Source: Candidatus Aldehydirespiratoraceae bacterium | GTDB taxonomy: Bacteria; Actinomycetota; Acidimicrobiia; Acidimicrobiales; Aldehydirespiratoraceae | NCBI GenBank assembly: GCA_965214565.1 | Contig: OZ243951.1 | Coordinates: 2,740,888 to 2,804,887 of the forward strand | Direction: 5' to 3' | Length of the DNA: 64,000 nt | Part shown: in pieces, positions 10,076-43,663 of the stretch | How the letters are laid out: each line of letters opens with the position of its first letter | Numbering within the stretch: position 1 is the stretch's first letter | Notes under the pieces: model-generated | Told to the model about the DNA's origin: nothing | Seen by the model: only the letters and a program-made list of their open reading frames with translations | Databases searched by the model: none | Position numbers and translations under genes: made by a program

Positions 10076-10189
10076 GTCAACTCATGCTAGCAGATATTGT
10101 CGGTTCGAAGGTGGACGCCACCCGTGGGCGACGGGTAGGTTCAGATGACAACCATGTGATTGTGGTTCGGTAGCGAAAAAGGAGTCCGG

Positions 10190-13759: not shown

Positions 13760-13858
13760 GGCCCGTGGAGTTGCGAAATCGCCGCGGAGCGCTGAGACTG
13801 TAGCAGTCTGGTTGCGCAGCAACTGCGACACAGGTCAAGAATTCTGGTTTACGACATT

Positions 13859-13897
13859 CCAGAGAAACGACCCAGAGAAACGACCCAGAGAAACGAC
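13859..13897. repeat. Perfect tandem repeat, 13-bp unit CCAGAGAAACGAC x3
   Basis: I read this directly. The copies are at 13859-13871, 13872-13884 and 13885-13897, immediately upstream of the next ORF's start codons (GTG 13901 / ATG 13916). Confidence 0.9.
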
Positions 13898-13915
13898 AGA
13901 GTGGGGGCTGTGGCC

Positions 13916-14584
13916 ATGGCCATCGAAGTGGAGACCAAGGACTGCACCGCCGTGAGCGATGCCGAGCTCGCCGAGATGGCGGATCTCTGTGCGGCGTCTC
14001 CGAATGCCTTCGAGGTCGGCTTGCTGTCGAAGCAGTGTGAAAAATGGGTCTTGGTCACAGTTGCCAGCGAGGGCGGCAAGATCCGAGGATTCTCGTATTG
14101 CACTCTCGAGCGAATCGGCGGAACGCCGAGCGTGCTAATCGGCGCAGCCCACATTTGCCGCAACAACAAACGCGACACAGTTCTTCGTGTAATCATGACT
14201 GACCAGCTCCGCCGCTCGGTGTTGGCATTCCCGGACGAGGATGTGCTCGTTGGCACCCAGCTCAACGATGCGGGTGCCTTCGACGCCTACAAGACCCTCG
14301 ACGATATTGTCCCCCGTCCGGATCACAAGGTCTCCGGCGAGGAGCGGGCATGGGGTCGCCGGTTGGCGAAGCGTTTCGGTATCGAGGCGAATCGCTACGA
14401 AGACCGCGCATTCATCGTTCGCGGGGACGGCAAGCAACCGGTCGTGCTCGACCATGCCAGCATCAAGCCCGAGGAGATCCCTGCCGAGGTCACTTCTCAA
14501 CTCTCCGATCTGGATGTCGCGGCGGGCGACACGTTGATCGCCTTCGGTTGGGCCATGGCCGAGGATCTCGAGAAACTGCTCTGA
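13916..14584 (+). CDS. Hypothetical protein
   Basis: A long ORF with host-like codon bias and no family I recognise. The start is ambiguous (GTG 13901 or ATG 13916). Confidence 0.5.
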   Translation: MAIEVETKDCTAVSDAELAEMADLCAASPNAFEVGLLSKQCEKWVLVTVASEGGKIRGFSYCTLERIGGTPSVLIGAAHICRNNKRDTVLRVIMTDQLRRSVLAFPDEDVLVGTQLNDAGAFDAYKTLDDIVPRPDHKVSGEERAWGRRLAKRFGIEANRYEDRAFIVRGDGKQPVVLDHASIKPEEIPAEVTSQLSDLDVAAGDTLIAFGWAMAEDLEKLL

Positions 14585-15189
14585 ACGACTCTGGACTTGC
14601 CGGGATCGTCCGTCGCCGACGGATGACGCGGTCGTTCTCAAGTGAACCGGTCGCTCCCGAGGTTGTTGAAGAATTGATTGACCTCGCGCGGCGTTCCCCC
14701 TCAGCGGGAAATGCATCCGCGTTGGAGTGGCTGGTTTTGGACGACCCGACGGCTGTGGCCGCGTACTGGGACACCACCCTGCCCTCAGAGCGCCGCGACG
14801 GCTTCGCCTGGCCCGAACTGCTGAAGGCCCCAGTGATCGTGATTCTGTGGGTCGACCCACAGATCTATCTCGAGCGCTACCGCGAGGCCGACAAGGCGCA
14901 CACACCTCTCGGGGAGTCACTCGAATCTTGGAGCGTCCCATACTGGTTCGTCGACGGTGGCGCAGCAGTGCAGACACTCCTGCTGGCAGCCGAGGAAGCG
15001 GGCTTGGGTGCACTGTTCTTCGGACTGTTCGAACACGAACCGAAGGTGCGCGAGACGTTCGGCGTGCCTCCCATGTGGAGGGCACTGGGAGCGGTCGCGC
15101 TCGGGCAGCGCGCCAAGGACAGGCCTTCGCAGAGTCAGCTGAGACGCCGTCGCCGGATCGAGGAGGTCGTCCACCGCAACAGGTGGTGA
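14581..15189 (+). CDS. Nitroreductase family protein
   Basis: RRRRMTRSF (FMN-phosphate-binding R-x-x-R-S-x-R-x-F type) followed by SAGN and a C-terminal WYFVDGG...LGALFFG pattern. The start is uncertain because the conserved Arg motif lies upstream of the first ATG (14623). This implies a non-ATG start near 14581-14605. Confidence 0.65.
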   Translation: MNDSGLAGIVRRRRMTRSFSSEPVAPEVVEELIDLARRSPSAGNASALEWLVLDDPTAVAAYWDTTLPSERRDGFAWPELLKAPVIVILWVDPQIYLERYREADKAHTPLGESLESWSVPYWFVDGGAAVQTLLLAAEEAGLGALFFGLFEHEPKVRETFGVPPMWRALGAVALGQRAKDRPSQSQLRRRRRIEEVVHRNRW

Positions 15190-15318
15190 TCTGCGGTTCG
15201 GTAGTTCAGTTTGCCTGTACGAATCGGAGCCGCGGCTTGGTGTCGTGGCTGGCGCAAAGATAGCCTCGGCGGGTTCATGGGAATGTTCCCTAGACAGATG
15301 AGCCCGATCGGAGGCCCA

Positions 15319-15726
15319 ATGGAAGCGGATACACCATCTCAAGTCCCGCTCGTCAGCTATCTGCGGTTGGGTTCGGAAGCCCACCTAGTAGCCAATGAAT
15401 GTACGAACTGCGGCGCCCGCTTCTTTGACCGTCGCAATGCCTGCGCGCAATGCGGTCTGCGTGAGTTCAAGAATGTTCGGGTCGACAACGCCGCGAAGCT
15501 GAAGGCGTTCACGATCGTCCACCGCGCCGCGCCGGGAATCCCGGCCCCGTATGTCTCCGCCATCGTCGAGACCATCGACGGCACCACGGTCCGGTCCAAC
15601 GTGGTCAACTGCGAGCCCGACCCCGAAGTGGTGCAGTTGGGAATGGAGTTGAAGCTCACCACCTATCCCATCGGCGCCGACGATGACGGCACCGAAGCGA
15701 TCGCCTTCGGTTATCAACCCGCCTGA
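15319..15726 (+). CDS. DUF35 family Zn-ribbon/OB-fold protein (thiolase partner)
   Basis: CTNCGARFFDRRNACAQCG rubredoxin-like ribbon followed by an OB-fold-length C-terminus. A GGAGG SD lies before ATG 15319. It sits immediately upstream of a thiolase, which is the usual pairing. Confidence 0.75.
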   Translation: MEADTPSQVPLVSYLRLGSEAHLVANECTNCGARFFDRRNACAQCGLREFKNVRVDNAAKLKAFTIVHRAAPGIPAPYVSAIVETIDGTTVRSNVVNCEPDPEVVQLGMELKLTTYPIGADDDGTEAIAFGYQPA

Positions 15727-15758
15727 ACGCCACCCGCAACAACAAGGAAGTATCTCAG

Positions 15759-17009
15759 ATGGCCACGACGAAGAGCCCCACAGCAAAGTCCTCAGCAAGC
15801 AGGATCAGCGATGACAGTGTCTGGATTCTGGGCACCCACATGACCAGGTTCGCGCGTTATCCGGAAAAGGACGTGGTGGATCTGGCTGCAGAGGCATCGA
15901 TCGCCGCGCTCGAGGACGGCAACGTGACCATCCACGACATGGACGTGTTGGCGGCAGGGTCCCTCTTCAATGCCGGGACCGGGATCGGGCAGCGGATCCA
16001 GAAACAGATCGGACAAACCGGTATTCCGGTGTTCAATGTGGCCAACGCCTGTGCCACCGGCGCAACTGCGGTGCGCACCGTCTACCTCTCAATCAAGGCG
16101 GGAGAGGCTGATCTGGGCCTGGCAGTCGGTGTTGAGCAGATGGGCAAGATGGGTCTGCTCGGCGGTGCCGGCACCAAGAAGGAGAAGAAGGTCTTCGAGC
16201 CCAGCGGTCGCTACGGAGCCGTGACCGGAATCGACGGCTACATCGGCACCGAAGGCATGCCCGGAGTCTTCGCCCAGGCGGGGATGGAGTACGCCAACAC
16301 CTATGACGGCGTCGGTTTCGAGCAGTTCGCGAGGGTGGCGTACAAGAACCACCTTCACTCAACGCTCAACCCGCTGGCGCAGTACCGCAAAGAGTTCTCG
16401 ATGGACGAGATCATGGCCTCGCCGACCATGAGCTATCCGAATACCCTGTTGATGTGTTGCCCCACCGGTGACGGCGCGGCGGCAGCGGTGCTCGTCTCTG
16501 GGCAGCGGCTCAAGGCCATGCCGGCACAGGCCCGCAGGCGGGCCGTCAAGATATCAGCCTCGGTACTGACCTCAGACCCCTATACCGAAGCGAGCCAGGT
16601 GCAACCCGACGTCAACACATTGACGCGCAATGCGGCGGCAAAGGCCTATGAAACCGCAGGTGTCGGTCCCGAGGACCTCGACCTTGTGGAGCTCCACGAC
16701 TGCTTCGCCACAGCGGAGTTGATCCATTACGACAACCTCGGCCTGTGTGAACCCGGTGCTGCCGGCGACTTCATCGATTCCGGTGCTCCGTTCCGTGACG
16801 GCACGACACCGGTAAACGTGTCGGGTGGCTTGATCTCCAAGGGCCACCCGATCGGCGCCACCGGCGTTGCCAACGTGTTCGAAGTCACGACCCACCTTCG
16901 CGGCGAAGCCGGCGACCGGCAGATTGCCGATGCCAAGGTCGGTTTGGCACATGTCATCGGTTTGGGGTCGGCGTGTGCTATCCATGTCCTGGAGAAGGCC
17001 GCCGTCTGA
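15759..17009 (+). CDS. Thiolase-like protein (SCP-x / non-specific lipid-transfer-type thiolase)
   Basis: NVANACATGATAV (active-site Cys), ELHDCFA, and GGLISKGHPIGATG near the C-terminus. Confidence 0.85.
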   Translation: MATTKSPTAKSSASRISDDSVWILGTHMTRFARYPEKDVVDLAAEASIAALEDGNVTIHDMDVLAAGSLFNAGTGIGQRIQKQIGQTGIPVFNVANACATGATAVRTVYLSIKAGEADLGLAVGVEQMGKMGLLGGAGTKKEKKVFEPSGRYGAVTGIDGYIGTEGMPGVFAQAGMEYANTYDGVGFEQFARVAYKNHLHSTLNPLAQYRKEFSMDEIMASPTMSYPNTLLMCCPTGDGAAAAVLVSGQRLKAMPAQARRRAVKISASVLTSDPYTEASQVQPDVNTLTRNAAAKAYETAGVGPEDLDLVELHDCFATAELIHYDNLGLCEPGAAGDFIDSGAPFRDGTTPVNVSGGLISKGHPIGATGVANVFEVTTHLRGEAGDRQIADAKVGLAHVIGLGSACAIHVLEKAAV

Positions 17010-17033
17010 TCACAGGAGGCAGCGAGTCAAAAT

Positions 17034-19883
17034 ATGCCGCTGCGTGTCACTGTCACGTCGCATAGCGACCCAGAAGGCGAAGCGATCGTCTCCGCCGCGC
17101 CCCTCGTCGGCGTGAGCGGACTCGCGCAATGTCGGGTCTCGAGGGTCTATCACCTCGATGCCGCCGGCCCCTTGGACCGCGACGATGTCGATCGGCTCTG
17201 CCGCGAGGTGCTCGTCGACCCCGTCGTGGCCGAATACTCCGTAGGCGAAGCCGCGGCAGCCGTGGGCCGCGCCATCGAGGTGGCAGCACTACCGGGAGTG
17301 ACAGACCTCGAAGCGAGAGAGCTTGAGCGTGCCGCGCAGCAACTGCAGATAGCGGACCTTCGGGTTTCGACCGCGGTCCGCTACGACCTGATCGGGGACC
17401 TCGACGACCGAGCCGTGACCGTCATCACCAAGCGGTTGTTGGCCAACGACACGATCGAGCAGTCCCATGAAGGCACATTGGCCCCCACGTTCGTCGCTCA
17501 AGTGGACCCTGACCCACGGGTCGAGTCGGTGCCGCTGCGCGAACTCAACGACAGCGAACTGGCGACGTTGAGTTCCCAACGGTTGCTGTCACTCGACGTG
17601 GAGGAGATGCGCGCCATCCAGCGTTACTTTGATGACATCGGTCGCAGCCCCACCGATGCGGAGCTTGAGACGTTGGCTCAGACCTGGTCGGAGCACTGTG
17701 TCCACAAGACGTTCCGTGCTTCGATCGAATTGACGCACATCACCGCGGACGGCCTCACAAAGGTGACCCGTCACGACGGTCTGCTGGCCGCGCTGCGCGA
17801 GGTTACCGAGGAGCTCGATCCATGGTGGTTGCGATCAGCATTCGTCGACGACGCCGGGATAGTGGCCTTCGATGACCGCTTCGATCTCGCCTTCAAGGTG
17901 GAGACCCACAACCACCCATCGGCTCTTGAACCGTTCGGTGGTGCGAACACCGGTGTCGGCGGCGTGGTCCGAGACATTCTGGGGGTCTCGGCTCGACCCA
18001 TCGCCTGCACCAACGTACTGTGTTTCGGCCCTGCCGACCTGCCCGATGACCGACTGTTGACAGGAGTGCTGCATCCCCGCCGAATCCGCGACGGAGTCGT
18101 CGATGGGATCGCCGACTACGGAAACAAGTTGGGCCTTCCGACTGTCAACGGCGCAGTGGTCTACGACGAGGGATACATCGGCAACCCGCTGGTGTACTGC
18201 GGTGCGCTGGGGCTTCTGGTCAACGGTTCACATCCGAGCGCGGCTCAACTCGGTGACCGTGTCGTCTCCATCGGGGGAAGGGTCGGCCGGGACGGAATCC
18301 ATGGCGCCACCTTCTCGTCGGCCACCATGAACGCATCCACGGTCGATTCGGTCGGCGCGGCGGTGCAGATCGGTGATCCGATCACCGAGAAAGGTTGCAT
18401 TGAGGTGGTTGAGCGCGCCTGCGAGCTCGGTTTGTACAACGCCATCACGGACTGTGGGGCGGGAGGCTTCTCATCTGCAGTGGGCGAGATGGGCGAGGAC
18501 CTGGGTGTCGAGATCAACCTCGAAGTAGTGCGTCTCAAGTATCCGGGCCTGCAGCCATGGGAGATCTGGCTCTCCGAAGCGCAGGAACGGATGGTCATGG
18601 CGGTTCCGGCCGAATCGCTGCGGGAGTTGCAGCAGATCTGTGATGACTGGGATGTGGAGCTGACCGATCTGGGCAGCTTCAGCGGCTCCGGCAAACTGGT
18701 GGTTCGACATGGCGACTCCCCAGTCATCGACATGTCCATGGACTTCCTGCACAACGGGCTGCCCCGCCGGGAGATGACCGCGACCTGGGTCGACCCGCCC
18801 AGCACCGAGGTCGAGTCACCGCGCGTCAACGCGGAGATGCTCTTGGGGCTCCTGACCCATCCCGATGTTGCCAGCAAGGAGGACATTGTCCGGCGCTACG
18901 ACCATGAGGTGCGGGCAGGGACCGTCGTGCGTCCCCTGGTGGGACGCAACGCTGATGGCCCCGCAGACGCCGCGGTGGTCAAGCCACTCGGCACACAGCA
19001 CACTTCCGCTGCGGCAGTCTTGAGCAATGGCCTATGCCCGCGTGTCGGCAGGCACGACCCGTACGCGATGGCACTTCTGGCACTGGACGAGGCGGTCCGC
19101 AATCTGGTCGCGGTCGGCGGCGACCCCGACCGGGTGGCGCTGCTCGACAATTTCTGTTGGGGAGATCCAACCCGCAGCGATCGCCTCGGCAGCCTGGTCC
19201 GCGCCGTGCAAGGCTGCACCGACGGAGCCCGCCGCTACGCGATGCCTTTCATTTCCGGCAAGGACAGCCTCTTCAACGAGTTCGAGGGGCGGCCGGTGCC
19301 ACCCACATTGCTGATCTCCGCACTCGGACTGGTCGGTGACCTAGACAGTGCGATCGACTCGGCGGGCATGAACGTCGGCGACGATCTGTGGCTAGTCGGC
19401 CAGGGGAGTGCGGCGCTCGGGGGGTCTGTGGCGGACGCTCTCTACGGGCTCGGCGCCACTGACGTCCCCGCGCCCCTCGATGACCCTCTGCCGCGTTATC
19501 GAGCCGTGCATTCCGCCATTGCGGCCGGTCTGGTGTCAGCCGCACACGACTGCAGCGACGGCGGAATCGCGGTGGCCATCGCGGAGATGGCGATCGCCTC
19601 CCGGTACGGGGTGGCCGTGGAGGTTCCCTCCGACGGATGCGACGAGTTCGCGGCTCTCACCAATGAGGGACCGGGGCGCCTCGTGTTGGCCGCACACCGC
19701 AACAACCGTGATGTGATCGGTGCGACGCTGGGCGTCGACGGGCGACGGATCGGCGAGGTGACCGCGGACAGCCGGATCAGTTTGCAGGTGCAGGGGGGGC
19801 ACGGCGACCCTACTGCGGGCGCAGTGGTCTGTGTTGATGTCCAAGACGCAGCACGAGCATTCAAATCGTCGGTGTCGGCGTGA
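17034..19883 (+). CDS. purL: Phosphoribosylformylglycinamidine synthase subunit PurL with an N-terminal tandem PurS-like extension (PurS-PurS-PurL fusion)
   Basis: The WSEHCVHKTF motif only appears at about residue 226. Upstream of it are two ~80-aa PurS-like modules (…VLVDPVVAEYSV and …RLLANDTIEQS). The rest is canonical small PurL (HNHPSALEPFGGANTGVGGVVRD). Confidence 0.95.
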   Translation: MPLRVTVTSHSDPEGEAIVSAAPLVGVSGLAQCRVSRVYHLDAAGPLDRDDVDRLCREVLVDPVVAEYSVGEAAAAVGRAIEVAALPGVTDLEARELERAAQQLQIADLRVSTAVRYDLIGDLDDRAVTVITKRLLANDTIEQSHEGTLAPTFVAQVDPDPRVESVPLRELNDSELATLSSQRLLSLDVEEMRAIQRYFDDIGRSPTDAELETLAQTWSEHCVHKTFRASIELTHITADGLTKVTRHDGLLAALREVTEELDPWWLRSAFVDDAGIVAFDDRFDLAFKVETHNHPSALEPFGGANTGVGGVVRDILGVSARPIACTNVLCFGPADLPDDRLLTGVLHPRRIRDGVVDGIADYGNKLGLPTVNGAVVYDEGYIGNPLVYCGALGLLVNGSHPSAAQLGDRVVSIGGRVGRDGIHGATFSSATMNASTVDSVGAAVQIGDPITEKGCIEVVERACELGLYNAITDCGAGGFSSAVGEMGEDLGVEINLEVVRLKYPGLQPWEIWLSEAQERMVMAVPAESLRELQQICDDWDVELTDLGSFSGSGKLVVRHGDSPVIDMSMDFLHNGLPRREMTATWVDPPSTEVESPRVNAEMLLGLLTHPDVASKEDIVRRYDHEVRAGTVVRPLVGRNADGPADAAVVKPLGTQHTSAAAVLSNGLCPRVGRHDPYAMALLALDEAVRNLVAVGGDPDRVALLDNFCWGDPTRSDRLGSLVRAVQGCTDGARRYAMPFISGKDSLFNEFEGRPVPPTLLISALGLVGDLDSAIDSAGMNVGDDLWLVGQGSAALGGSVADALYGLGATDVPAPLDDPLPRYRAVHSAIAAGLVSAAHDCSDGGIAVAIAEMAIASRYGVAVEVPSDGCDEFAALTNEGPGRLVLAAHRNNRDVIGATLGVDGRRIGEVTADSRISLQVQGGHGDPTAGAVVCVDVQDAARAFKSSVSA

Positions 19884-20692
19884 GCGCAGCTCCGATCCTC
19901 ATAGTGCACGCTTCGGGCACGAACCGCGACGGCGATGCCGCCCAGGCGGTCGAACTGGCCGGGGGCAGCGCGCGAATCGTGCACGTCAATCAACTGCGCC
20001 GGGGCGATGTGACCTTCGCCGACCATGCGGGCGTGTTGATCCCTGGAGGGTTCTCCTACGGCGACTCGCTCGGTGCCGGGCAGAGGCTGGCGTTGGAGCT
20101 TCGGCTGTGGTTCGCCCACGAGCTGTCCGATGTGGTCGCAGCGGGAAAGCCGGTACTGGGAATCTGCAACGGATTCCAAGTGCTGGTCAAGGCCGGACTG
20201 TTGGGAGGGGTGTCGGAGAATCTCCCCGCGGCCGAAAACCGACAGGTGACGCTCACCGACAACTCGCGCGGCCGCTTCGAATGTCGCTGGGTCACGCTGC
20301 GAGTGGAACCTACAGTTCGCAGCACCTGGCTGGGATCGATCAGAGACACGATCATCCGCTGTCCCATTGCACACGGCGAGGGCCGGTTCGTCAGCGCCGA
20401 TGAGTCCGTGAGCGCCGAATTGGAGGCGCAGGGTCTCGTTGCGTTCAGGTATCAGGACTCTGGCGCGACACCGGTCTTAAGGCCGGACTCTGTGAGACCC
20501 GCATCCGGGGTCTACCCCGCCAACCCCAATGGTTCTGTAGCTGACATAGCCGGGATCTGCGATCACAGCGGAGCCGTAGTGGGGCTGATGCCCCATCCAG
20601 AGGACCATGTTCTGGACTGGCAGCGACCCAACGGCGATCCGGGTGCAACAGGGTTGCCGTTGTTCAAGGCTTTCGTGGCGGCGGCTCGGTGA
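19880..20692 (+). CDS. purQ: Phosphoribosylformylglycinamidine synthase glutaminase subunit PurQ
   Basis: GGFSYGD, the GICNGFQ nucleophile elbow, and HPE near the C-terminus. The start overlaps the purL stop. Confidence 0.93.
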   Translation: MSAAPILIVHASGTNRDGDAAQAVELAGGSARIVHVNQLRRGDVTFADHAGVLIPGGFSYGDSLGAGQRLALELRLWFAHELSDVVAAGKPVLGICNGFQVLVKAGLLGGVSENLPAAENRQVTLTDNSRGRFECRWVTLRVEPTVRSTWLGSIRDTIIRCPIAHGEGRFVSADESVSAELEAQGLVAFRYQDSGATPVLRPDSVRPASGVYPANPNGSVADIAGICDHSGAVVGLMPHPEDHVLDWQRPNGDPGATGLPLFKAFVAAAR

Positions 20693-35127: not shown

Positions 35128-35858
35128 TGGACCTCTACCCGGCGATCGACCTGCGTGGCGGCAAGTGTGTTCGGCTGCTGCAGGGGGACTACGGACGCGA
35201 GACCGTCTACGGCTATGATCCGCTGGCGCAGGCCCGCGCCTTCGTCGAGGCCGGCGCGCGGTGGATCCACGTCGTCGACCTCGATGCGGCGCGTACCGGG
35301 ATCCCTGAGAACCGGGAGGTCGTCGCGGCTATTGCCGATGCGGTGCCGGTGCCCGTTCAGACAGGCGGAGGCGTTCGCAGTGCGGAGGCGGCTCAAGCAC
35401 TGTTCGACGCTGGTGTGGAGCGCGTCGTGATAGGAACGGCAGCGTTGAGGGATCCTGATCTGGTGGTTGCTCTGGCGCAGCAGAACCGGGTGGCGGTTGG
35501 TCTCGACGCCAAGTCGGGCGAGGTGGCCACCGACGGTTGGCTCGTCGGCTCCGGTCGCACGGTGGCCGAGGTCGCCTGTTCGTTCGTGGACACCGGAGTC
35601 GACGCGTTCGTGGTTACCGACATCGGTCGGGACGGCACCCTCGATGGCCCCGATGTCGCGGGACTCTCCGAGATCCTTGCGGTGACCCGAACCGATGTGA
35701 TCGCCAGTGGGGGAGTGGGGAGTCTTGACGACCTCAAGGAACTCGACGGTATCGAGGTGGGGGGTCGCCGACTCAGCGGTGTGATTGCAGGCAAGGCGTT
35801 CTATGAGGGCCGCATCGATGTGGCCGCCGCGGTCGCCGCGTTGCGGGAGACTCGCTGA
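35127..35858 (+). CDS. hisA: ProFAR isomerase HisA (HisA/PriA family)
   Basis: [35 protein letters not shown] and ASGGV motifs. The ATG overlaps the hisH stop (TGATG). Confidence 0.93.
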
Positions 35859-35860
35859 CC

Positions 35861-36631
35861 GTGCGGGCGATCCGGGTGATTCCGTGTCTTGATGTCGATG
35901 CCGGAAGGGTGGTGAAGGGCGTCAACTTTGTGGACATCCGTGATGCCGGTGATCCCGTCGAACTAGCCGCCGCCTACGATGTTCAGGGTGCCGATGAGGT
36001 GGTGTTCCTGGACATCACCGCTTCTTCGGACCAGCGCGACACGACGGTCCAGATGGCCCGAGCTGTCGCGGATCAGGTCTTCATCCCCTTCACCATCGGT
36101 GGTGGGATCCGCACTGTCGACGATGCCCGTCGCTTGCTGATGGCCGGCGCCGACAAGGTGAGTGTCATGACCGCAGCGATAAAGCGTCCGGTGTTGGTCA
36201 CCGAGATAAGCAGGGAGTTCGGAGCGCAGTGTTGTGTCGTCGCCATCGACGCCCGCCGGGTGGACGGCAGCGACGACGCCTTCGAGGTCTACACGCACGG
36301 CGGCAGGATCCGTACCGGCGTCGACGCGCTCGAGTGGGCCTCAGAGGTGCAGCGCCTCGGTGCTGGTGAGATTCTGCTCACCTCGATGGACACCGACGGC
36401 ACCAAGGACGGATTCGATATTCCTCTCACCGCGGCGGTGACCGCGGCTGTGGACATCCCGGTGATCGCCAGCGGCGGTGTGGGGACGCTGCAGCACATGG
36501 TCGAAGGGGTCGTCGAAGGTGGCGCCGACGCGGTGCTGGCGGCGAGCATCTTCCATTTCGGCGAGCACACCGTGGCCGACGCCAAACGGGTGCTGACCGC
36601 GAACGGCGTAACGGTCCGCCCTCCGAACTGA
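35861..36631 (+). CDS. hisF: Imidazole glycerol phosphate synthase, cyclase subunit
   Basis: [33 protein letters not shown] and ASGG motifs. Confidence 0.95.
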
Positions 36632-36642
36632 TCCCTTGTTGC

Positions 36643-36670
36643 GGCCCTCCACGGGCAGGGCCTGTTTCCT
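36643..36670 (+). terminator. Possible terminator hairpin after hisF
   Basis: GGCCCT-ccacgggc-AGGGCC followed by TGTTTCCT. The stem is short and the T-tract weak. Confidence 0.35.
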
Positions 36671-36727
36671 GGCACATCCGGACGAGCCCATAAGGCTAGG
36701 ATCCACAAGGGAGGATCGGGTGCGGAG

Positions 36728-38107
36728 ATGCTAGTCGGACTGAAGATCAAGAACTTCAAGAGCATCCGGGATGCACACGTACGCTTGGGGCCCTTCACAT
36801 GCTTCATCGGTCACAACGGGGTGGGGAAGAGCAATCTGTTCGATGCGATCCACTTTCTGAGTTCTCTGGCCGAGCACGACATCCCTGAGGCAGCCACGCT
36901 GGTCAGGAGTGCCAGTGACGGCAGCTACTCGCCTCTGGACTTGGTGTTCGGCCGGGACCCGACCCGCAAGATTGAACTGACGGCCGACATGATCGCCCCC
37001 CAACAAGTCGAAGACGACTTCGGTGAGGAGGCGACACCCAGCACGACGCTGTTGACCTACTCTTTAACGCTCGGTTATCAAGGTGAATCCGACCGCTTGG
37101 TTGTCGAGAATGAGAGCCTGACACACGCAAGGCTCGGGGAGTACAAGAAGTTCGTCGGCTTCGCGTCCTCCGCCGACTTCAGGGAGTCGGTTGCCGTCGG
37201 GTCGCGCCGGGGCGGGGCACTGATTTCGACGAATTCAGAGGATCGCCGGATCATGCTTCATGGTGATGGTGGCAGCAGGGGGAGGCCAACGCCCGTGGGC
37301 AAGTCACCGTTGACGGTGGTCGGAGGCACCAATACCTTCAACTATCCGACGGTGCTTGCGGCGAAACGAGAAATGTCCTCTTGGCGGACTCTCCACCTTG
37401 AGCCGAGTGTCATGAGGGCTCCCGACCCGCGCTCGGCACCTCGACACGTCTCGGCTTCAGGAGGACATATTGCAGCGACACTCAATGCGCTCATACAACA
37501 GCACCCCGACTCCAGACTTGAGATAGTCAACAATCTTCGTGAACTCAACTCGGGTATCGAAGAGATAGACGTCCACAGCGACGAAGTCAGGGACCAGTTG
37601 ACCTTGAGGGCGAGGGTTCCCGGAGTGGACAACTGGCTCTACGGACGGTCCCTGTCCGACGGCACGCTGAGATATGTTGCGCTCGCTTTGATGTTGGCAG
37701 ATGTTCAGGACAGGGCAGTCCTATGCATGGAGGAGCCGGAGAATGGAATCCACCCGTCACGTATTCCCAATCTTGTGGAGTTACTGCGTGACTACGCGGT
37801 GGATGTCGGTGAGCCAGTTGCTGATGACAATCCACTGAGACAAGTCCTGATCAACACGCACTCACCAGAAGTAGTACGTCAGGTCGAGTTGGACGAGATG
37901 ATCTTTGTTGAAGTTGCCAATTCCCCCCGGGACGGCCAGTACAGCGTTTTTCGGCCGATTGAAGACACTTGGCGCGTGCCTGCCCTTGACGGGACCGAGT
38001 CAGAGGTACTACCCAAAGCTAAGCAACGCGTGGCGGATTTCATCGGCGGTTCGCCGGTCAACACCAAGCTTGGTCAGTTGCAGTTCGATTTCGGGTCTGC
38101 TCGGTGA
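36728..38107 (+). CDS. ABC/SMC-like ATPase of the AAA_15/AAA_21 type (RecF/OLD-ATPase-like), 459 aa
   Basis: N-terminal IKNFKSIRD...[14 protein letters not shown] (Walker A), a long helical/insert region, then [15 protein letters not shown] (signature-like), [13 protein letters not shown] (Walker B/D-loop) and INTHSPEVV (H-loop). A GGGAGGA SD lies upstream. GC is visibly lower than in hisF. Confidence 0.85.
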
Positions 38108-38691
38108 GTCGGCAGATCACCTACACAGTCGTGGCAGACGGTGGGACCGACAGGCTCCTGGTGCCCATCATTGACTGGACCATTCATCGACTTGATCCGG
38201 AGGTCGACATTCTCGAGCCTGAGTTTGAGAAACGGGCCGGAAGCGTCGGTGAGCATTTCGAGAGTTCCACGCGCACCACCATGCTGGTCTTCGCTCATCG
38301 CGACGCCGAGGCTTCGAGCATCGATGACCGTCTGCGCGAATTCGACAGTGTGTCCGGTGTGGTTCCCGTGGTTCCGGTTCGGATGTCCGAGGCTTGGCTC
38401 CTGATCGATGGCGACGCGATCGCCCGAGCCGCCGATTCGCGTGCCGCGGTCGATTTGCCCAAGTTGAACACGCTCGAAAACGTTGTTGATCCGAAATCTG
38501 AGTTGGAAACGCTCCTGTTCGCGGCGGCGGGTTCTCCGACGGGGCGCCGCGGAAAGAAGTTCAAGAGTTCGTTGGCGAAGCGCCGTGTGAACCTGGCGTC
38601 ACTCATTACGGACTACAGCCCGCTCGAGAGTCTTGAAGCGTTCCGCCGATTTCAATCCTCTCTCGCCGACGCGTACCCCTACCGCCTGTAG
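38104..38691 (+). CDS. Small partner protein of the ATPase, Toprim-like/DUF4276-like (function inferred)
   Basis: The GTG start overlaps the ATPase stop (GTGA). 195 aa, with an N-terminal strand plus acidic motif YTVVADGGTDRLLV, then FAHRDAE, RMSEAWLLIDG and KSELETLLF. From memory, this pattern resembles DUF4276/Toprim-type partners of AAA_21 ATPases. Confidence 0.6.
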   Translation: MSRQITYTVVADGGTDRLLVPIIDWTIHRLDPEVDILEPEFEKRAGSVGEHFESSTRTTMLVFAHRDAEASSIDDRLREFDSVSGVVPVVPVRMSEAWLLIDGDAIARAADSRAAVDLPKLNTLENVVDPKSELETLLFAAAGSPTGRRGKKFKSSLAKRRVNLASLITDYSPLESLEAFRRFQSSLADAYPYRL

Positions 38692-38821
38692 TTCTCGTAT
38701 TCTGTGCGTTCGCGCGAGGTCGAGCCGTGCGGTACTACGGGAGTTGATCGGACGGACGCTCAAGGGTCGGGCCAGCGGTCCCGACAGCGCTCGGGCTGAT
38801 CCGAGCGTGTGCAGCAGCAGG

Positions 38822-39052
38822 ATGACCGAGATCCCGGCCGCTGAGACTTGTCGCCTGATCGTCGCCGCGGTGGACGCCGACCAGTTGCTACTAGCCGCTC
38901 ACGTTCACGCCGACTTTGAGCCCCTTGAGCGTGAGCGCAGCGACGCGGTGAACGCGGCACGCCGGGCGCTACGCGATGGAGGTCGTTCCAACGCGCTGAT
39001 GGTCTGGAGAATGAGCAGCGGGGACATGGACCTGTTGACCGCGCGGGGCTGA
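38822..39052 (+). CDS. Hypothetical small ORF (76 aa) or gene remnant
   Basis: High third-position GC in this frame, but no convincing SD, no recognisable family, and an ambiguous start (TTG 38744 / GTG 38807 / ATG 38822). Confidence 0.25.
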   Translation: MTEIPAAETCRLIVAAVDADQLLLAAHVHADFEPLERERSDAVNAARRALRDGGRSNALMVWRMSSGDMDLLTARG

Positions 39053-39104
39053 TCCGGGCGCGCGTATCACAGTGACTATCGCTGTAGCAGCCAAATGCAA
39101 CATT

Positions 39105-39164
39105 GGCCGGAGTTGTGTCGTGCAGGCCGGAGTTGTGTCGTGCAGGCCGGAGTTGTGTTGTGTG
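39105..39164. repeat. Tandem repeat, 20-bp unit GGCCGGAGTTGTGTCGTGCA x~3
   Basis: Copies at 39105-39124 and 39125-39144 are identical. The third copy (39145-~39164) diverges at its 3' end (…GTGTTGTGTG). It lies in a stretch with no convincing gene. Confidence 0.9.
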
Positions 39165-39535
39165 CGTCTGTGAGCAACGTCGGGCTTGGCCAAGGCAGCC
39201 CGAACCCGTTCTCTCCAGGGTTTGGAACGTCGGTGGACACAGCACGCCGAGGCACGAAACGCGAACGGCTGACCGGTCGCTGCAACCTCACCAACAGCGG
39301 TCCGGTGGTCGCTGCTCGGCGAGGTGCGTTCAGTGGTCGGGGACCTAGGCGCGACCGGCGGGATCGCAGCGATCACCGCTTTGGTGAACGCGTTACCGCT
39401 CGACGTTCGACACTGGACATTGGCTGGCTACAACGACATGCGCAACACAACCGCCGCCGATGTGCAACGATTGCCCGATCCCGCCATAACGGCCCAGACA
39501 GCCCTCCCTGAACAGCGTTGACGCAAACGACGGGT

Positions 39536-39913
39536 TCAGCTTTGTCTCAGCGACCCGACAGGTATCGATATTGTGCCTCTGGTCTTGTCGATTCTGAACG
39601 GACCATCGACGCGAGCCAGCGTGCAGGACACCAGCACGTCGTCTTGGTACCTGTCAAGGTTTAGCCAGCTGGTTGAGACCAGAGTGTCCCCGCCGGGTGT
39701 GTCCGCTGGGGGTTTGATCGTGAACGTCACGGTTAAGAACTGGGAGGGTGACCCGATCACCTTGAGGTCAGCCTGAGCTTCTAGCCCCGCTTCTGGGACT
39801 AATCCGCCGACAAGGACAGCGAAGCCGACCTCAACGTGACTATCGGGCACCGCGCCCGTAGTCACATCTTGGAGCCAGACTTTGTTGATGTCTTTGTTGG
39901 CGTTCCCCGACAT
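39536..39913 (-). CDS. Hypothetical protein (125 aa, predicted beta-rich), downstream partner of the HIRAN gene
   Basis: A strong GGGAGGG SD lies 5 nt before the ATG, 25 nt after the HIRAN gene's stop. Low GC like its neighbour. No family recognised. Confidence 0.65.
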   Translation of the reverse strand: MSGNANKDINKVWLQDVTTGAVPDSHVEVGFAVLVGGLVPEAGLEAQADLKVIGSPSQFLTVTFTIKPPADTPGGDTLVSTSWLNLDRYQDDVLVSCTLARVDGPFRIDKTRGTISIPVGSLRQS

Positions 39914-39938
39914 GGTGTCCCTCCCTCATATCCGCCGC

Positions 39939-40940
39939 TCAGGCGGGTGGTGGTGGTGGAGGTGGAGGTGGTGGCGGCGGCGGCAGAGCGGTTGTTGTCG
40001 GCGGCGGCGCCCCAGCGTTCAGTCTTTTGGCTTCACGGAATGCTTCCTTGGCGGCTTCGCATGTCTCGATCTTGAAACGTGTGTGCAGCAGCCTTCCGAC
40101 TGCTTGATGGTGTCCAGCGTCATTTCGCTTGACTGTTCCGCAGTAAGAACTGCACTTCCATGTTGATGCTTCGTGAGCGTTGCTTGGCAGCTTGGCTCGG
40201 ATGCTCCCGGCGAAATCGTCCTCTTCGTCTTCTTCGCCCCCGAACCGCTCATAACAGTTACGTGTCAAGGTCAATTTCACTTCCAAATTGTCTACGTTTG
40301 GTCCCCAGAGTTTTTCGAGCGGGTCGACGACACCTACGACTGCGCTGCCCTTCGCTATGACGACTTCTATCGTGTTCGGGGAGTCAGCGACGTTTGGTGA
40401 GTGCCTCAGCCTGGCGGCGAAAGCCTTGGTGACCTCCCAATCGTCCTCTCGTTCGCGTCCTCGCTTCAGCATCGGCTGAAGAACTCTCTCGTCTAGATCG
40501 ACTCTGATGGCTCGACTGCCGAGTCCCCCTGCGTCCATGGCGGTCTTGTCTAGTTTGACTCCGAAGCAGCCATGCCTGCCCACGACGGCCCCCTTGACAG
40601 GTACCGGTTCGACTACATCGTCTGCGAACATGGCGGCGGTCGCCCTGTCAAGGTGACCTACCAGAAGGGCGGTCGTGTGGTCATATCTGTCGAGTGCGCT
40701 CGCACAAACAGCAATAGCGTTGGGGTCGTACTTGTTGTGGGTGTCTCTTACTAACCAGAACTGAACTCCCAGCTTCATCCAGTCCCCCGAAGAGTGGATG
40801 TGGCGTTTGCCATCTTGGAGCAGCGCGCCAATTTGCTGGTCGTGGTAGCTCTCGCCGACGATATCGAACCTACAGTCGTCGTTGTCTGTCACGTTCCAGT
40901 AGGCGACGTTGAGTTTCGAGCGTCGTCTCAACAGTCCCAT
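39939..40940 (-). CDS. HIRAN-domain protein with an uncharacterised C-terminal region and a poly-proline tail
   Basis: The N-terminus FDIVGESYHDQQIGALL...FWLVRDTHNKYDPNAIAVC...VGHLDRATAAMFADDV fits the HIRAN pattern (VGxxY...N-x-Y/F-D-x-N-A-I/V...G-Y/H-L/V). An AAGGAG SD lies 8 nt before the ATG. The C-terminus ends in 13 consecutive Pro. GC was about 45% in the one 60-nt line I hand-counted (40261-40320). Confidence 0.75.
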   Translation of the reverse strand: MGLLRRRSKLNVAYWNVTDNDDCRFDIVGESYHDQQIGALLQDGKRHIHSSGDWMKLGVQFWLVRDTHNKYDPNAIAVCASALDRYDHTTALLVGHLDRATAAMFADDVVEPVPVKGAVVGRHGCFGVKLDKTAMDAGGLGSRAIRVDLDERVLQPMLKRGREREDDWEVTKAFAARLRHSPNVADSPNTIEVVIAKGSAVVGVVDPLEKLWGPNVDNLEVKLTLTRNCYERFGGEEDEEDDFAGSIRAKLPSNAHEASTWKCSSYCGTVKRNDAGHHQAVGRLLHTRFKIETCEAAKEAFREAKRLNAGAPPPTTTALPPPPPPPPPPPPPA

Positions 40941-41197
40941 CTCGTCGCTCCTTTAGGATGCGGGCTTCAGTTGGCGCACGCTACTACGAATGGTGTCTGC
41001 CTGGGTGACCTGACCCCCTTTTATGGTCCGGTTGTTTTGAGAGTGTTTTCTGGTTGTTTGCCCATTGGTCCGCGTATTGGGTTGGTGTGAGCACACCGAT
41101 ACCGAACTGTTGAGATTGGAACTGATCATCTAGCCGTCAGGGGCATCCCACCACGGCGCCGGGCTCAATCTTGTGGGGTGGGCGCTAGCGTGGCTCT

Positions 41198-41554
41198 GTG
41201 GCTACCAAGGCGAAGCAGAACGGTGACCTCTCGGGTGACGACGGGCTTCCGGTCAAGATGCTCAACGATCGGATCCTCGTGTCGCTCGGTGAGGCGGAGG
41301 GAGAGCGTCGGTCATCGGGGGGAATCCTGATCCCGGCGACGGCACAGGTCGGCAAGCGCCTGTCGTGGGCGGAGGTCGTGGCCGTGGGCCCCAATGTCCG
41401 CAATCTCGAGACCGGAGATCAGGTTCTGTTCAACCCCGAGGACAGATACGAGGTGGAGGTCCGGGGCCTCGACTACATCATCCTGCGCGAACGCGACATC
41501 CATGCAGTTGCGGCCGAACGCCTCGACGAGGGCTCCACCGGCCTCTACCTGTGA
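41198..41554 (+). CDS. GroES/Cpn10-family protein with N- and C-terminal extensions (not adjacent to groEL)
   Basis: VKMLNDRILVSLGEAEGERRSSGGILIPATA...AEVVAVGP...ETGDQVLF...YIILRERDIHAV matches the Cpn10 fold pattern. An extra tail reads AAERLDEGSTGLYL. The GTG start is uncertain (alternative ATG 41258). Confidence 0.75.
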   Translation: MATKAKQNGDLSGDDGLPVKMLNDRILVSLGEAEGERRSSGGILIPATAQVGKRLSWAEVVAVGPNVRNLETGDQVLFNPEDRYEVEVRGLDYIILRERDIHAVAAERLDEGSTGLYL

Positions 41555-41576
41555 CCCAAAGGCAGCTGTCGATGAG

Positions 41577-43028
41577 TCAGGGGTGCAGCGGGCTGCGCTG
41601 GTCGGCCCAGCGGACTTCGAGCTCAAGTTGGCGGGCGACCTGCAGCAGCAGGTGCTCGTTGCCGTAGGCGGCGATCAGCTGGATGCCGATAGGCAGGCCG
41701 GTGCTGGTGCGCGCGAGCGGCAGCGATATCGCAGGTTGACCGGTCGTGTTGAAAGGGGCCGTCAACGTCGAATACGCCAAGGTGGCGAGAATCGCCGCTT
41801 CGGGGTCTGGCGCGGAGGCCGACATCACACCAAGGCGCGCCGGCGGTCGAAGGCACGTCGGCGCCAGCAACAGGTCGTGTCCGTCGACCCACCATTGCGC
41901 CATCAGGCGACGGAACTTCAGCATTTCGTCGTTGCTGCGCATCAACTCCAGGGCGTCGATTCGACGACCACGCTCGGCCAGCCGCCAGGTCATGGGCTCG
42001 ACATCCTCGGGAGCGATGTCTCGGCCGATCCATTCGCTGAACTGATCCAACGAATGAGCGACCCCGACTGCCCAAGCGGGACCGAACGAGCCGATCAGCT
42101 CCTCGTCGTGCAAGGCCGCGGGTGAATCATCGTCGACGGTGTGGCCCAGTCGTTCCAGCATTGCAGCGGCCTCCTGCACCGCGAGGGCAACCTCAGGATC
42201 GATCGCGACCCGGCTGCGGATCGTGTCGGCCAGCATGCCGATACGCAACGTCGGCGGCGCCTGGTTGATCAACTCCGCATACGGGGCCGGGGGAGCGGGG
42301 GCGATCACGCCGTCGCCCGGGAACGGTCCGGCGGTGGCGTCGAGGATCGCCGCGCTGTCACGCACAGTGTGGCACACGACGTGCTGAACGCTGTTGCTCC
42401 ACTCGTCGTTGTGGGGACCCTGCGAGATGCGTCCCCGGCTCGGTTTGAGGCCGACCAGGCCGCACATGGCTGCTGGAATTCGTATCGACCCGCCGCCGTC
42501 GCTGGCGTTGGCGGCCGGGAGAATTCCTGCGGCGACCGCGGCCGCGGCACCGCCCGAGGAGCCGCCGGGGCTGCGAGAGAGGTCCCAGGGGTTGCGGGTG
42601 GCGCCATAGGACAGCGGCTCCGTCGTGGCTGCAAGTCCCATCTCGGGGCTGTTGGTTCGCCCGCACAGCACGAAGCCGGCTCGGCGGTAGGCCGTGGTGA
42701 TGTTGGCGTCGAAGGTGGCCGTGTGGCCGGCATTCTTGAGGCCGAGCACCCCCATATGGAACGGGTCTCCCTCAGAGCACGGCCAGAGGTCCTTCAGCAG
42801 CATCGGGACGCCACGGAAGGGTCCGTCGGGGAGTGCGGACTGCGCGATGGCCCGGGCCTTGTCGAAGCTCGGTTGGATCACCGCGTTGACCTGCGGATCG
42901 ATCTGCTCAATGCGGTCGATGGTGTCGTCGATCAACTCGACGGGGCTGATCTGTCGGGTCTGCACCAGCTCGGCGAGCCCCACAGCATCGATGCGGGCCA
43001 GTTCGGATCTTTCGGAAGTGTCAAGCAT
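41577..43028 (-). CDS. Amidase-signature family enzyme
   Basis: [14 protein letters not shown] plus the upstream KD...G and downstream [12 protein letters not shown] amidase-signature blocks. The start is at the internal ATG (43028, [10 protein letters not shown]). Confidence 0.88.
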
Positions 43029-43240
43029 GGCCGAGACTCTAGATGTCCCTCGAACCGCAGGCGCAGTCGAATGGTTAACAGGACCTCTCAGAGGACGAGC
43101 AGATTGTCGCCGAACGCTGTCGAGACCGAGCGAGGCCCCGGCCCGAACAACCCACCCGCGGCTTCGAGGCCCGGTGAGCCCGGCGAACAAGCGCGGAAAG
43201 GCCCGACTGGTACAGGGCCGGGGACGTAGGCTGGGAGACT

Positions 43241-43663
43241 ATGGGAAAGTCTTCAGATGGAGCCGCACTGGAAGAAGGACTCTCGGTCGAACTCGACTTC
43301 GACAAGGTCGCCAAGATCGGCCGGGCCGGACATCAAGTCGTCCCGGTGGTGCTCCAGGACGCCGATTCCGACGAGGTCCTGTTCATCGGCTACGCCGATG
43401 AGCAGGCTTTTTCAGCGACGCTCGAACGACGCTCAGCGGTGCTGTACTCGACCTCGCGCCAGCAACTGTGGCACAAGGGGGCGACGAGCGGAGACACCCT
43501 CGAGGTGGTCGACGTGAAGGTCAACTGTGAGCAGAACAGCTTGCTGTATCGCGTCCGCAAGGCAGGCACGGGCGTGTGCCACACCAAAGATGAGCACGGC
43601 AACACCCGCCCGACCTGCTACTACCGCACCGTGACCAATCCAGACTCGCTCGCGTTTGGCTGA
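43241..43663 (+). CDS. hisI: Phosphoribosyl-AMP cyclohydrolase
   Basis: VPVVLQD...EVLFIGYADEQA, LWHKGATSGD, and VDVKVNCEQNSLLY...GVCHT motifs. Confidence 0.92.
   Translation: MGKSSDGAALEEGLSVELDFDKVAKIGRAGHQVVPVVLQDADSDEVLFIGYADEQAFSATLERRSAVLYSTSRQQLWHKGATSGDTLEVVDVKVNCEQNSLLYRVRKAGTGVCHTKDEHGNTRPTCYYRTVTNPDSLAFG

Follow-up and report, generated by a model that had tools for sequence, protein, structure and literature searches.

What lies between hisF and hisI in an uncultured, sponge-associated member of the Acidimicrobiia, how did it get there, and has it broken up a histidine biosynthesis operon? These questions are raised by a 64,000-nt stretch of contig OZ243951.1 with a mean guanine-plus-cytosine (GC) content of 62.9%, which was analysed as a whole and is referred to as the window. 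The genes hisD-C-B-H-A-F are tightly packed up to position 36631, their stop and start codons overlapping (GTGA, ATGA, GTGA, TGATG) or abutting, and hisI (43241-43663, coding for phosphoribosyl-AMP cyclohydrolase, PRA-CH), followed by trpE, stands apart from them. A sequence-only reading had described positions 36632-41197 as a lower-GC accessory island which splits the operon, and had proposed at least two independent acquisitions at an integration hotspot. The elements that it listed, an ATPase/partner gene pair, a 20-bp tandem repeat, and a HIRAN-domain gene with an accompanying open reading frame (ORF) on the opposite strand, are all in place. We favour, with moderate confidence, the view that the junction between hisF and the next gene, which codes for a GroES-like protein, is a variable spot: it would house an old, recombining cassette, the candidate system HEC-01, and a later mosaic insert present only in the window, with no dedicated recombinase at work.

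Occupancy of the junction in related genomes

The closest relatives in a collection of species representatives are metagenome-assembled genomes (MAGs) labelled Candidatus Aldehydirespiratoraceae or Acidimicrobiaceae; sponge metagenomes are the source of two related contigs. The junction was surveyed at 80 loci around relatives of hisF, onto which the window proteins were mapped by tblastn. An exact-sequence look-up of the window's hisF and GroES-like proteins returned no record for either. The closest relative of the window is L087, with 91.6% nucleotide identity in the his operon. Loci L081, L082, L004, L001, and L002 are 93-98% identical to each other over hisD-hisF and about 80% identical to the window over the same genes. 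At the protein level, the window's hisF product shares 94-95% amino-acid identity with those of L001, L002, L004, and L087.

Four states of the junction were found among the close relatives. In L001-L003 it is empty, with about 52-55 bp leading from hisF to the GroES-like gene, which is followed by an antisense amidase gene, hisI, and trpE. Only HEC-01 is present in L081, L082, and L087. The window carries HEC-01 together with a second insert of 2.46 kb. In L004, an intact hisF is followed by an insert of about 9 kb, a hisF remnant, and then HEC-01A.

The empty sites fix the borders of the island. Homology with them stops just after the sequence TGATC, directly past the stop codon of hisF (35861-36631, plus strand; Pfam His_biosynth, 1.4e-80), which forms the left conserved flank, and picks up again about 40 nt upstream of the start of the GroES-like (Cpn10) gene (41198-41554, plus strand; Pfam Cpn10, 2.8e-19), which forms the right conserved flank and lies outside the island. 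The conserved leader of this gene (41156-41197, plus strand), where homology to both the empty and the HEC-01-only sites resumes, contains the sequence ..GCGCTAGCGTGGCTCTGTGG common to the window, L001, L081, L082, and L087 (alignments A2, A6). The true limits of the island are thus 36632-41197, as had been proposed.

The operon itself is not split. The GroES-like gene lies downstream of hisF and before hisI/trpE in most of the 80 loci that reach far enough, and it stands between hisF and hisI in essentially all related Acidimicrobiia; in the window's lineage and in L007-L009 and L064, the antisense amidase gene is found there as well. Both genes had been noted to follow the island, and they do, but because they are also present beside the empty site in L001-L003, they are ancestral and no part of it. 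Since hisF and hisI are already kept apart by the GroES-like gene in relatives, the island interrupts no transcription unit; it follows the hisDCBHAF unit at its 3' end, past a terminator-like hairpin with a T-rich tail (36643-36662, plus strand), which begins 12 nt beyond the hisF stop codon. This hairpin was found by a consensus scan in which the number of terminator-like sites in the region did not exceed chance, so that it is suggestive by its position only. With the GroES-like and amidase genes in between, hisI-trpE has its own upstream region.

The HEC-01 gene pair

The first layer of the island is a pair of genes on the plus strand. The first (36728-38107) codes for an ABC-type ATPase with Pfam matches to AAA_21 and AAA_15, and is identified by PADLOC as HEC-01A (profile PDLC04184, E = 2.2e-80, residues 1-399 against profile positions 1-413 of 464). 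Its motifs are intact: Walker A (GHNGVGKS, residue 28), signature (LSDGT, 309), and Walker B (LCMEEPE, 332), as well as THSPE at residue 377, a possible H-loop. The second gene (38104-38691; 195 aa), the start of which overlaps the ATPase stop codon by 4 nt (GTGA), codes for a TOPRIM/DUF4276-like partner identified as HEC-01B (PDLC04210, E = 3.1e-15, residues 43-190); its only Pfam signal is a weak one to DUF4276 (E = 0.019). These profile matches identify the pair as HEC-01, a candidate anti-phage system listed in PADLOC, for which the combination of an ABC ATPase with a TOPRIM protein was described (bioRxiv 10.1101/2024.01.29.577857). It is the sole candidate that PADLOC lists in the island; the HIRAN protein and the small protein encoded next to it, orf125, are without a match. 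Orthologues of HEC-01A occupy the same junction in L081, L082, L087, and L004, and those of HEC-01B in L081 and L082. The HEC-01B gene of L087 (11434-12034) is frameshifted into pieces of 52 and 140 aa, so that it is either a pseudogene or affected by a long-read assembly error.

With both profiles matched, both genes on the same strand, a 4-nt overlap, and intact ATPase motifs, the pair resembles the described HEC-01. It differs from this system, named 'Hma-embedded candidate 01', by lying outside any Hma system, alone between housekeeping genes, and by a partner in which the match to HEC-01B is confined to the C-terminal three-quarters of the profile. The combination of an ABC ATPase with a TOPRIM-type effector is a logic shared with PARIS (AriA, an ABC ATPase, and AriB, a DUF4435 TOPRIM protein) and with OLD and Gabija, and the window ATPase has secondary matches to the AriA (3e-29), Old, and GajA profiles. 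We rejected an assignment to PARIS: the AriA match is partial and, compared with 2e-80, falls about 50 orders of magnitude behind that to HEC-01A, and the partner matches neither AriB nor DUF4435. Unlike in OLD and GajA, ATPase and putative nuclease are separate proteins in the window. The two genes would be translationally coupled, and, if OLD, Gabija, and PARIS are a guide, the HEC-01 ATPase might sense an infection cue and license its partner, a putative nuclease.

Allelic history of HEC-01

Relatives with no more than about 80% nucleotide identity to the window have HEC-01 at the same position, which marks it as an old resident of the junction. It is subject there to presence/absence and allelic polymorphism. 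Presence and absence alternate between very similar genomes: over hisD-hisF, the occupied L082 and the empty L001 share 98.1% identity. As to the alleles, L081 and L082 share 79.9% identity in HEC-01 and 93.5% in the his genes, L081 and L004 share 95.7% and 92.9%, and L082 and L004 share 84.5% and 96.7%, respectively. The alleles of HEC-01 do not follow the tree of the core genes.

These values bear on a purely vertical history, in which HEC-01 entered once, in a common ancestor, and has since only been lost (in L001-L003), so that no hotspot would exist and the HIRAN module would be the sole separate event. Such a history would account for the exactly identical position of HEC-01 in lineages 80% identical in nucleotides, and for the divergence of HEC-01 between the window and L081 (82%) or L087 (about 89%), which matches that of the flanking genes. 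It is difficult to reconcile with HEC-01 alleles as distant as those of L081 and L082 despite their similar his genes, or with the near-identity of the occupied L082 and the empty L001. Furthermore, L001-L003 share a homologous spacer of about 52 bp, which three independent precise deletions would not recreate, and in L004 the junction has independently received a 9-kb insert. We therefore regard the vertical history as quite unlikely.

The cassette is thus neither a recent arrival in the window genome nor simply inherited; junctions with and without it, and divergent versions of it, circulate among the lineages. This modifies the earlier proposal of at least two independent acquisitions: the site states do reveal two steps, but the ATPase pair is not recent in the window genome. 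Relatives do carry the same genes in the same place as far as the HEC-01 pair is concerned, but the second layer is confined to the window.

Proposed exchange through conserved flanks or by site-specific integration

On the reading that we favour, the conserved flanks would have allowed HEC-01 to pass from one lineage to another by recombination that is homologous or facilitated by homology. Observations that point this way include his fragments which accompany the cassette. In L004, the hisF remnant consists of hisF nucleotides 294-437 joined to the last 55 nt of the gene, and it abuts HEC-01A. A further case was found at a different locus. In L088 (9543-11502) and likewise in L089, L090, and L091 (four independent assemblies), an intact HEC-01A with 90% amino-acid identity is placed after a FabA-like gene. 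Upstream of it are 322 bp from the 3' part of hisB and the 5' part of hisH, joined to the final 59 bp of hisF; of HEC-01B, no more than the first 125 nt follow downstream. L087 is the genome that the his fragments resemble most, and the locus lies within an island of HTH-HipA (HipAB), RelB, AbiEii, and methyltransferase genes. This locus is a transplanted and decayed piece of the his-HEC-01 region, and it follows that the cassette takes parts of neighbouring housekeeping genes along. Recombination anchored by homology would be expected to leave such companions, and a site-specific element would not.

In homology-facilitated illegitimate recombination, foreign DNA is integrated via a one-sided homology anchor. 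The HEC-01A copies in L004 and L088-L091 resemble the expected outcome of this process in carrying adjacent his fragments; the same pattern could also come from duplication followed by deletion.

The same fragments can be read in another way, namely as traces of one or two classical site-specific islets, integrative elements which targeted the 3' end of hisF via an integrase that has been lost or acted in trans. Both the duplicated hisF fragment beside HEC-01A in L004 and the last 59 bp of hisF that accompany the cassette in L088-L091 are reminiscent of the duplications of gene 3' ends made by integrases, and in L081 the spacer between HEC-01B and the GroES-like gene weakly resembles the hisF 3' end (p about 0.002-0.012). 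The L004 remnant is, however, unlike an attachment (att) core, as it joins an internal 144-nt piece of hisF to the last 55 nt. None of the five carriers has a gene for an integrase, recombinase, or transposase at its occupied site: Pfam, NCBIfam, and PHROG scans detected no integrase or transposase domain in any island ORF, and the genes called at this junction in L081, L082, and L087 include none, and no recombinase gene either. Neither a tRNA or tmRNA gene nor any Rfam family was found anywhere in the window. A search for flanking direct repeats found none above chance around either layer, the best border repeat being 17 nt at 82% identity. A remnant resembling the hisF 3' end at the right border of the island (41089-41128, GAGCACACCG..GAACTGATC) was considered as an att-like duplication and rejected, as its local-alignment score does not stand out from those of shuffled sequences (p = 0.08-0.4). 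A site-specific origin thus appears rather improbable to us. Of the integration hotspot inside an operon which had been postulated, the variable site stands, but site-specific integration is without support and no operon is split.

Further observations concern the surroundings of the junction in relatives. The L004 insert (10772-20147) codes on its minus strand for three paralogous large secreted repeat proteins, and it contains a gene for a DUF222-HNH endonuclease. Within the otherwise 96-99% identical genomes of L081, L001, L002, and L082, a block of about 800 nt in hisA (equivalent to window positions 35130-35858) is only 76-82% identical, which indicates imported recombination tracts within a housekeeping gene. 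L082 and L001 are 94% identical in the 200 nt of hisF at the junction, compared with 99-100% further upstream. This mosaic structure of the his region, too, points to recombination through the flanks.

A second insert of mosaic composition

The second layer of the island (about 38692-41155; 2.46 kb) would have been added later, in the window's lineage only, between HEC-01B and the GroES-like gene. In the comparison with L087, blastn homology ends at 38683, the end of HEC-01B, and resumes at 41183 (about 41157 when the alignment is inspected by eye), and the L087 counterpart of the insert is 86 bp. The insert has no blastn match in L081, L082, or L001-L003, and is absent from all other relatives.

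The layer is itself a mosaic, because only its HIRAN gene matches L083, L084, and L086, and only orf125 and a repeat motif match L085. Over the HIRAN gene (39939-40940, minus strand) and the adjacent 58 nt on its upstream side, nucleotide identity to L083, L084, and L086 is 77-80%, and this homology ends at 40013. The orf125 gene (39536-39913, minus strand; 125 aa) codes for a small protein, for which a search of 5.8 billion proteins produced one relative only (P0135, 71% identity). This relative is encoded in L085, where homology to the window spans 39526 to 39943, and lies beside an RHH/Fic pair with no HIRAN gene upstream. Between the two blocks of homology is a seam (39939-40012, minus strand), a (GGN)n tract of about 70 nt in which Tandem Repeats Finder detected a period of 3 (39946-39974). 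The poly-proline tail of the HIRAN protein is encoded there and therefore arose at the seam. Short-read contigs from all four sequencing runs described below have alternative letters ACTCCCCCAGGAGGTGGT around the tract (39946-39978), with 50x depth in one run; either the tract is variable or a similar tract of another genome maps here.

We rejected a conserved partnership of orf125 with the HIRAN protein: L083 and L086 carry an unrelated membrane protein of about 128 aa downstream of the HIRAN gene, and the sole orf125 homologue does not adjoin a HIRAN gene.

The remainder of the insert, about 0.85 kb, had been considered to be without a convincing gene. It does lack a long clean gene, but it holds a coding-like ORF and a gene remnant. 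The ORF (38822-39052, plus strand; 76 aa) has GC contents of 0.72-0.78, 0.50, and 0.75 at the three codon positions; it has no relatives and no significant match in Pfam (best DUF7490, E = 0.043), NCBIfam, or PHROGs. The remnant (39273-39521, plus strand) is 5'-truncated and corresponds to the C-terminal two-thirds of Pfam DUF6197 (profile positions 35-109 of 111; E = 1e-4; 23.0 bits, just below the cut-off of 24.6), in a frame that fits the codon-position GC. It is the best match obtained in any frame of 38692-39535 with Pfam, NCBIfam, and PHROGs; no transposase signal was detected there, so that the suspected relic of a transposase tail is not borne out.

Between the ORF and the remnant, the 20-nt tandem repeat GGCCGGAGTTGTGTCGTGCA is present in 2.9 copies (39105-39164). 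Three matches to it were found, compared with 0.02 expected by chance. The motif recurs with 1.4 units in L085 (936-976), a contig from a sponge (Ircinia) metagenome, at a distance of about 290 nt on the downstream side of the orf125 homologue and within sequence that is otherwise not alignable to the window. Might it be a putative protein-binding site, or a small mobile motif?

Taken as a whole, the second layer would be a patchwork drawn from the gene pool which fills defence islands in related bacteria.

The HIRAN-domain protein

The HIRAN protein consists of an N-terminal HIRAN domain (Pfam PF08797, residues 23-106; 29.3 bits with a cut-off of 24.7), a rare C-terminal domain, and the poly-proline tail, which is specific to the window. 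An alignment-based AlphaFold2 model has a mean confidence (pLDDT, the predicted value of the local distance difference test) of 84.7. When searched with Foldseek, the N-terminal third of the model matched the HIRAN domain of HLTF alone (probability 0.72-0.96, with weak E-values), and the rest of the protein had no match. From the HIRAN domain we predict that the protein probably binds DNA 3' ends. The C-terminal domain contains four residues that are invariant in the family (C263, C267, H286, C294).

The family is very small. A word search returned 13 homologues. When 1.84 billion representatives were searched with a profile, 180 matches came back, among which four were full-length and two were partial over the C-terminal domain, the rest matching in the HIRAN domain only. 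A viral origin of the family was considered and rejected, as no viral relative is found in IMG/VR; neither the HIRAN protein nor orf125 or HEC-01B has a PHROG match.

In L083, L084, and L086, the surroundings of the HIRAN gene contain genes for N6/N4 methyltransferases and for HipA/HTH, DUF87, PLD-like, FRG/TPR, AAA_15/21, RAMA, and DDE-transposase proteins. A Ser/Thr kinase gene is immediately upstream of the HIRAN homologue in L083, and the homologues in L084 and L086 are a few kb from HipA/HTH pairs. A distant member encoded in L092 (7989-9821), 35% identical over residues 5-309, occurs in fusion with an RNase_T/DEDD 3'-5' exonuclease domain; its gene adjoins ligA, mnmA, and a cysteine desulfurase gene.

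Actinobacterial HIRAN proteins have been linked with Hip kinases and DEDD diDNases in islands (PMC8262856, PMC11706625). The window protein is similar to the HipI-HipN (HipS-HIRAN) modules in being a bacterial HIRAN protein of island or defence contexts, the homologues of which are linked to a kinase, HipA/HTH, and DEDD. It is different in that its HIRAN domain is N-terminal and followed by the rare, unmatched domain with its C-C-H-C pattern, and in that neither a kinase nor an exonuclease gene adjoins it, its neighbours being orf125 and the GroES-like gene. We rejected the window protein as a HipN-type antitoxin: besides the position of the HIRAN domain, it has no Couple_hipA/HipS-like match and no adjacent Hip kinase.

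A more far-reaching idea is that these proteins might constitute a very rare, new family of stand-alone sensors of DNA 3' ends in immunity or defence-linked repair, and that HEC-01 might, in addition, spread by carrying pieces of hisF as a homology 'address'. We think it doubtful that both hold.

Support for the assembly

Might the HIRAN module have been misjoined into the his region of a MAG? The contig is of the MAG type, and the module has no counterpart in any relative. The arrangement was compared with contigs assembled from short reads of four public runs, all belonging to one study. These cover 35800-39134 and 39129-42000 with 100% identity and an even depth of 5-10x, and both junctions of the second layer are spanned. 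The sole contig break is at the 20-nt tandem repeat, where a 46-nt contig bridges it. Independent contigs from the four runs are thus continuous from hisF through HEC-01 into the insert, and from the insert through the HIRAN gene and the GroES-like gene to the amidase gene. Because both junctions are covered, the arrangement is no assembly chimera, and we see next to no chance of an artefact.

In runs X3 and X4, a contig with 29-40x depth joins 36585 to 41246 and skips the island, its anchor on the shorter side being only 30 nt. A coexisting relative in which the site is empty may be the source of this joint; these two runs contained no L001-like genome.

Base composition

The lower GC content on which the island was originally recognised is real but modest, a dip to 56-58% against a background of 63%. 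The ATPase gene has 57.7% GC, its partner 60.2%, the interval 38692-39535 64.3%, orf125 57.7%, and the HIRAN gene 57.6%; the flanking his genes have 61-67%. Compositional changes along the island are much smaller than the steps that had been described, and the 45% ascribed to the HIRAN gene was a fluctuation in a single line of sequence. In windows of 1 kb, the island minima are 0.560-0.566, about 3.5 standard deviations (sd) under the mean outside the island (0.632, sd 0.019, minimum 0.579). The windowed profile shows a deviation, but core genes here can reach nearly island-level GC: the native minimum (0.579 per kb, or 57.9%; 11800-13200), which is the second-lowest value of the window, is inside dnaE (10160-13759), which codes for DNA polymerase III alpha. 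GC at third codon positions, 0.63-0.71 in the island genes, is inside the native range (mean 0.72, sd 0.053), and the deficit of the island genes is mostly at codon position 1. Composition by itself would not carry the argument for an accessory region.

Genes adjoining the island

The antisense amidase gene (41577 to about 43028, minus strand relative to the his genes) is annotated in the window as an ORF of 537 aa, compared with 483 aa in its orthologues. The ORF runs 54 codons past the orthologues' start (43029-43190). The true start is probably the ATG at 43028, and this start would leave a divergent region of 212 bp between the amidase gene and hisI.

The gap between the GroES-like and amidase genes is a second variable spot. 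L082 (12516-13754) has an extra gene there, coding for a 412-aa protein without a Pfam match, and L087 (12771-13334) has a DUF6642 gene. No extra gene is present in the window, L081, or L001-L003.

Weighing the evidence and comparison with known hotspots

Several points weigh against a recombining defence cassette at a variable site. The identity of HEC-01 between the window and L081 (82%) is close to that of the flanking his genes (81%), which also fits vertical descent with losses. Recombination tracts that carry the cassette were not seen directly, and the lower identity (94%) of L082 and L001 in hisF at the junction is a single observation. In L004, the HNH endonuclease gene adjoins the hisF remnant, so that an endonuclease-stimulated route is possible for this locus. 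With respect to defence, the TOPRIM fold of HEC-01B is a putative one, its single-sequence AlphaFold2 model having a pLDDT of only 35. In the only published test of HEC-01, carried out in E. coli, no protection was seen (bioRxiv 10.1101/2024.01.29.577857), and the defence role of HEC-01 stays a candidate one for this reason. Finally, the same junction in distant relatives holds ordinary genes of metabolism and regulation and no defence genes: many have an alpha/beta hydrolase, others a BTAD regulator, GNAT, GGDEF, ABC transporter, or glycosyltransferase gene. From this cargo we conclude that the site is a generally permissive gap between operons and no dedicated defence site.

Core-flanked defence hotspots have been described in Pseudomonas aeruginosa (cDHS1 and cDHS2, PMC10250203) and in E. 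coli (hotspot #37, PMC10121019), and Johnson et al. proposed transfer by homologous recombination through the flanks. The hisF site shares with these hotspots its conserved flanks, a variable occupancy that includes the empty state, cargo that differs between close relatives, and the lack of obvious scars from mobile elements. It differs from them in being much smaller, with one candidate system and a 2.5-kb mosaic, in having hisF and a GroES-like gene as flanks and no tRNA or tmRNA, in a cargo that is not always defence-related in other relatives, and in its host, an uncultured group of Acidimicrobiia.

The hisF/GroES-like junction is an ordinary, small, core-flanked variable hotspot, and only the rare HIRAN family and the his-tagged copies of the cassette are unusual. 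The understanding of his operons and of defence islands is unchanged by it. The his traces on cassette copies elsewhere point to recombination through the flanks, and two testable items are flagged, an actinobacterial allele of HEC-01 and a very rare family of HIRAN proteins. For the uncultured Acidimicrobiia, the locus provides a clean and small example of candidate immune genes that are kept polymorphic between housekeeping genes with no visible mobility machinery.

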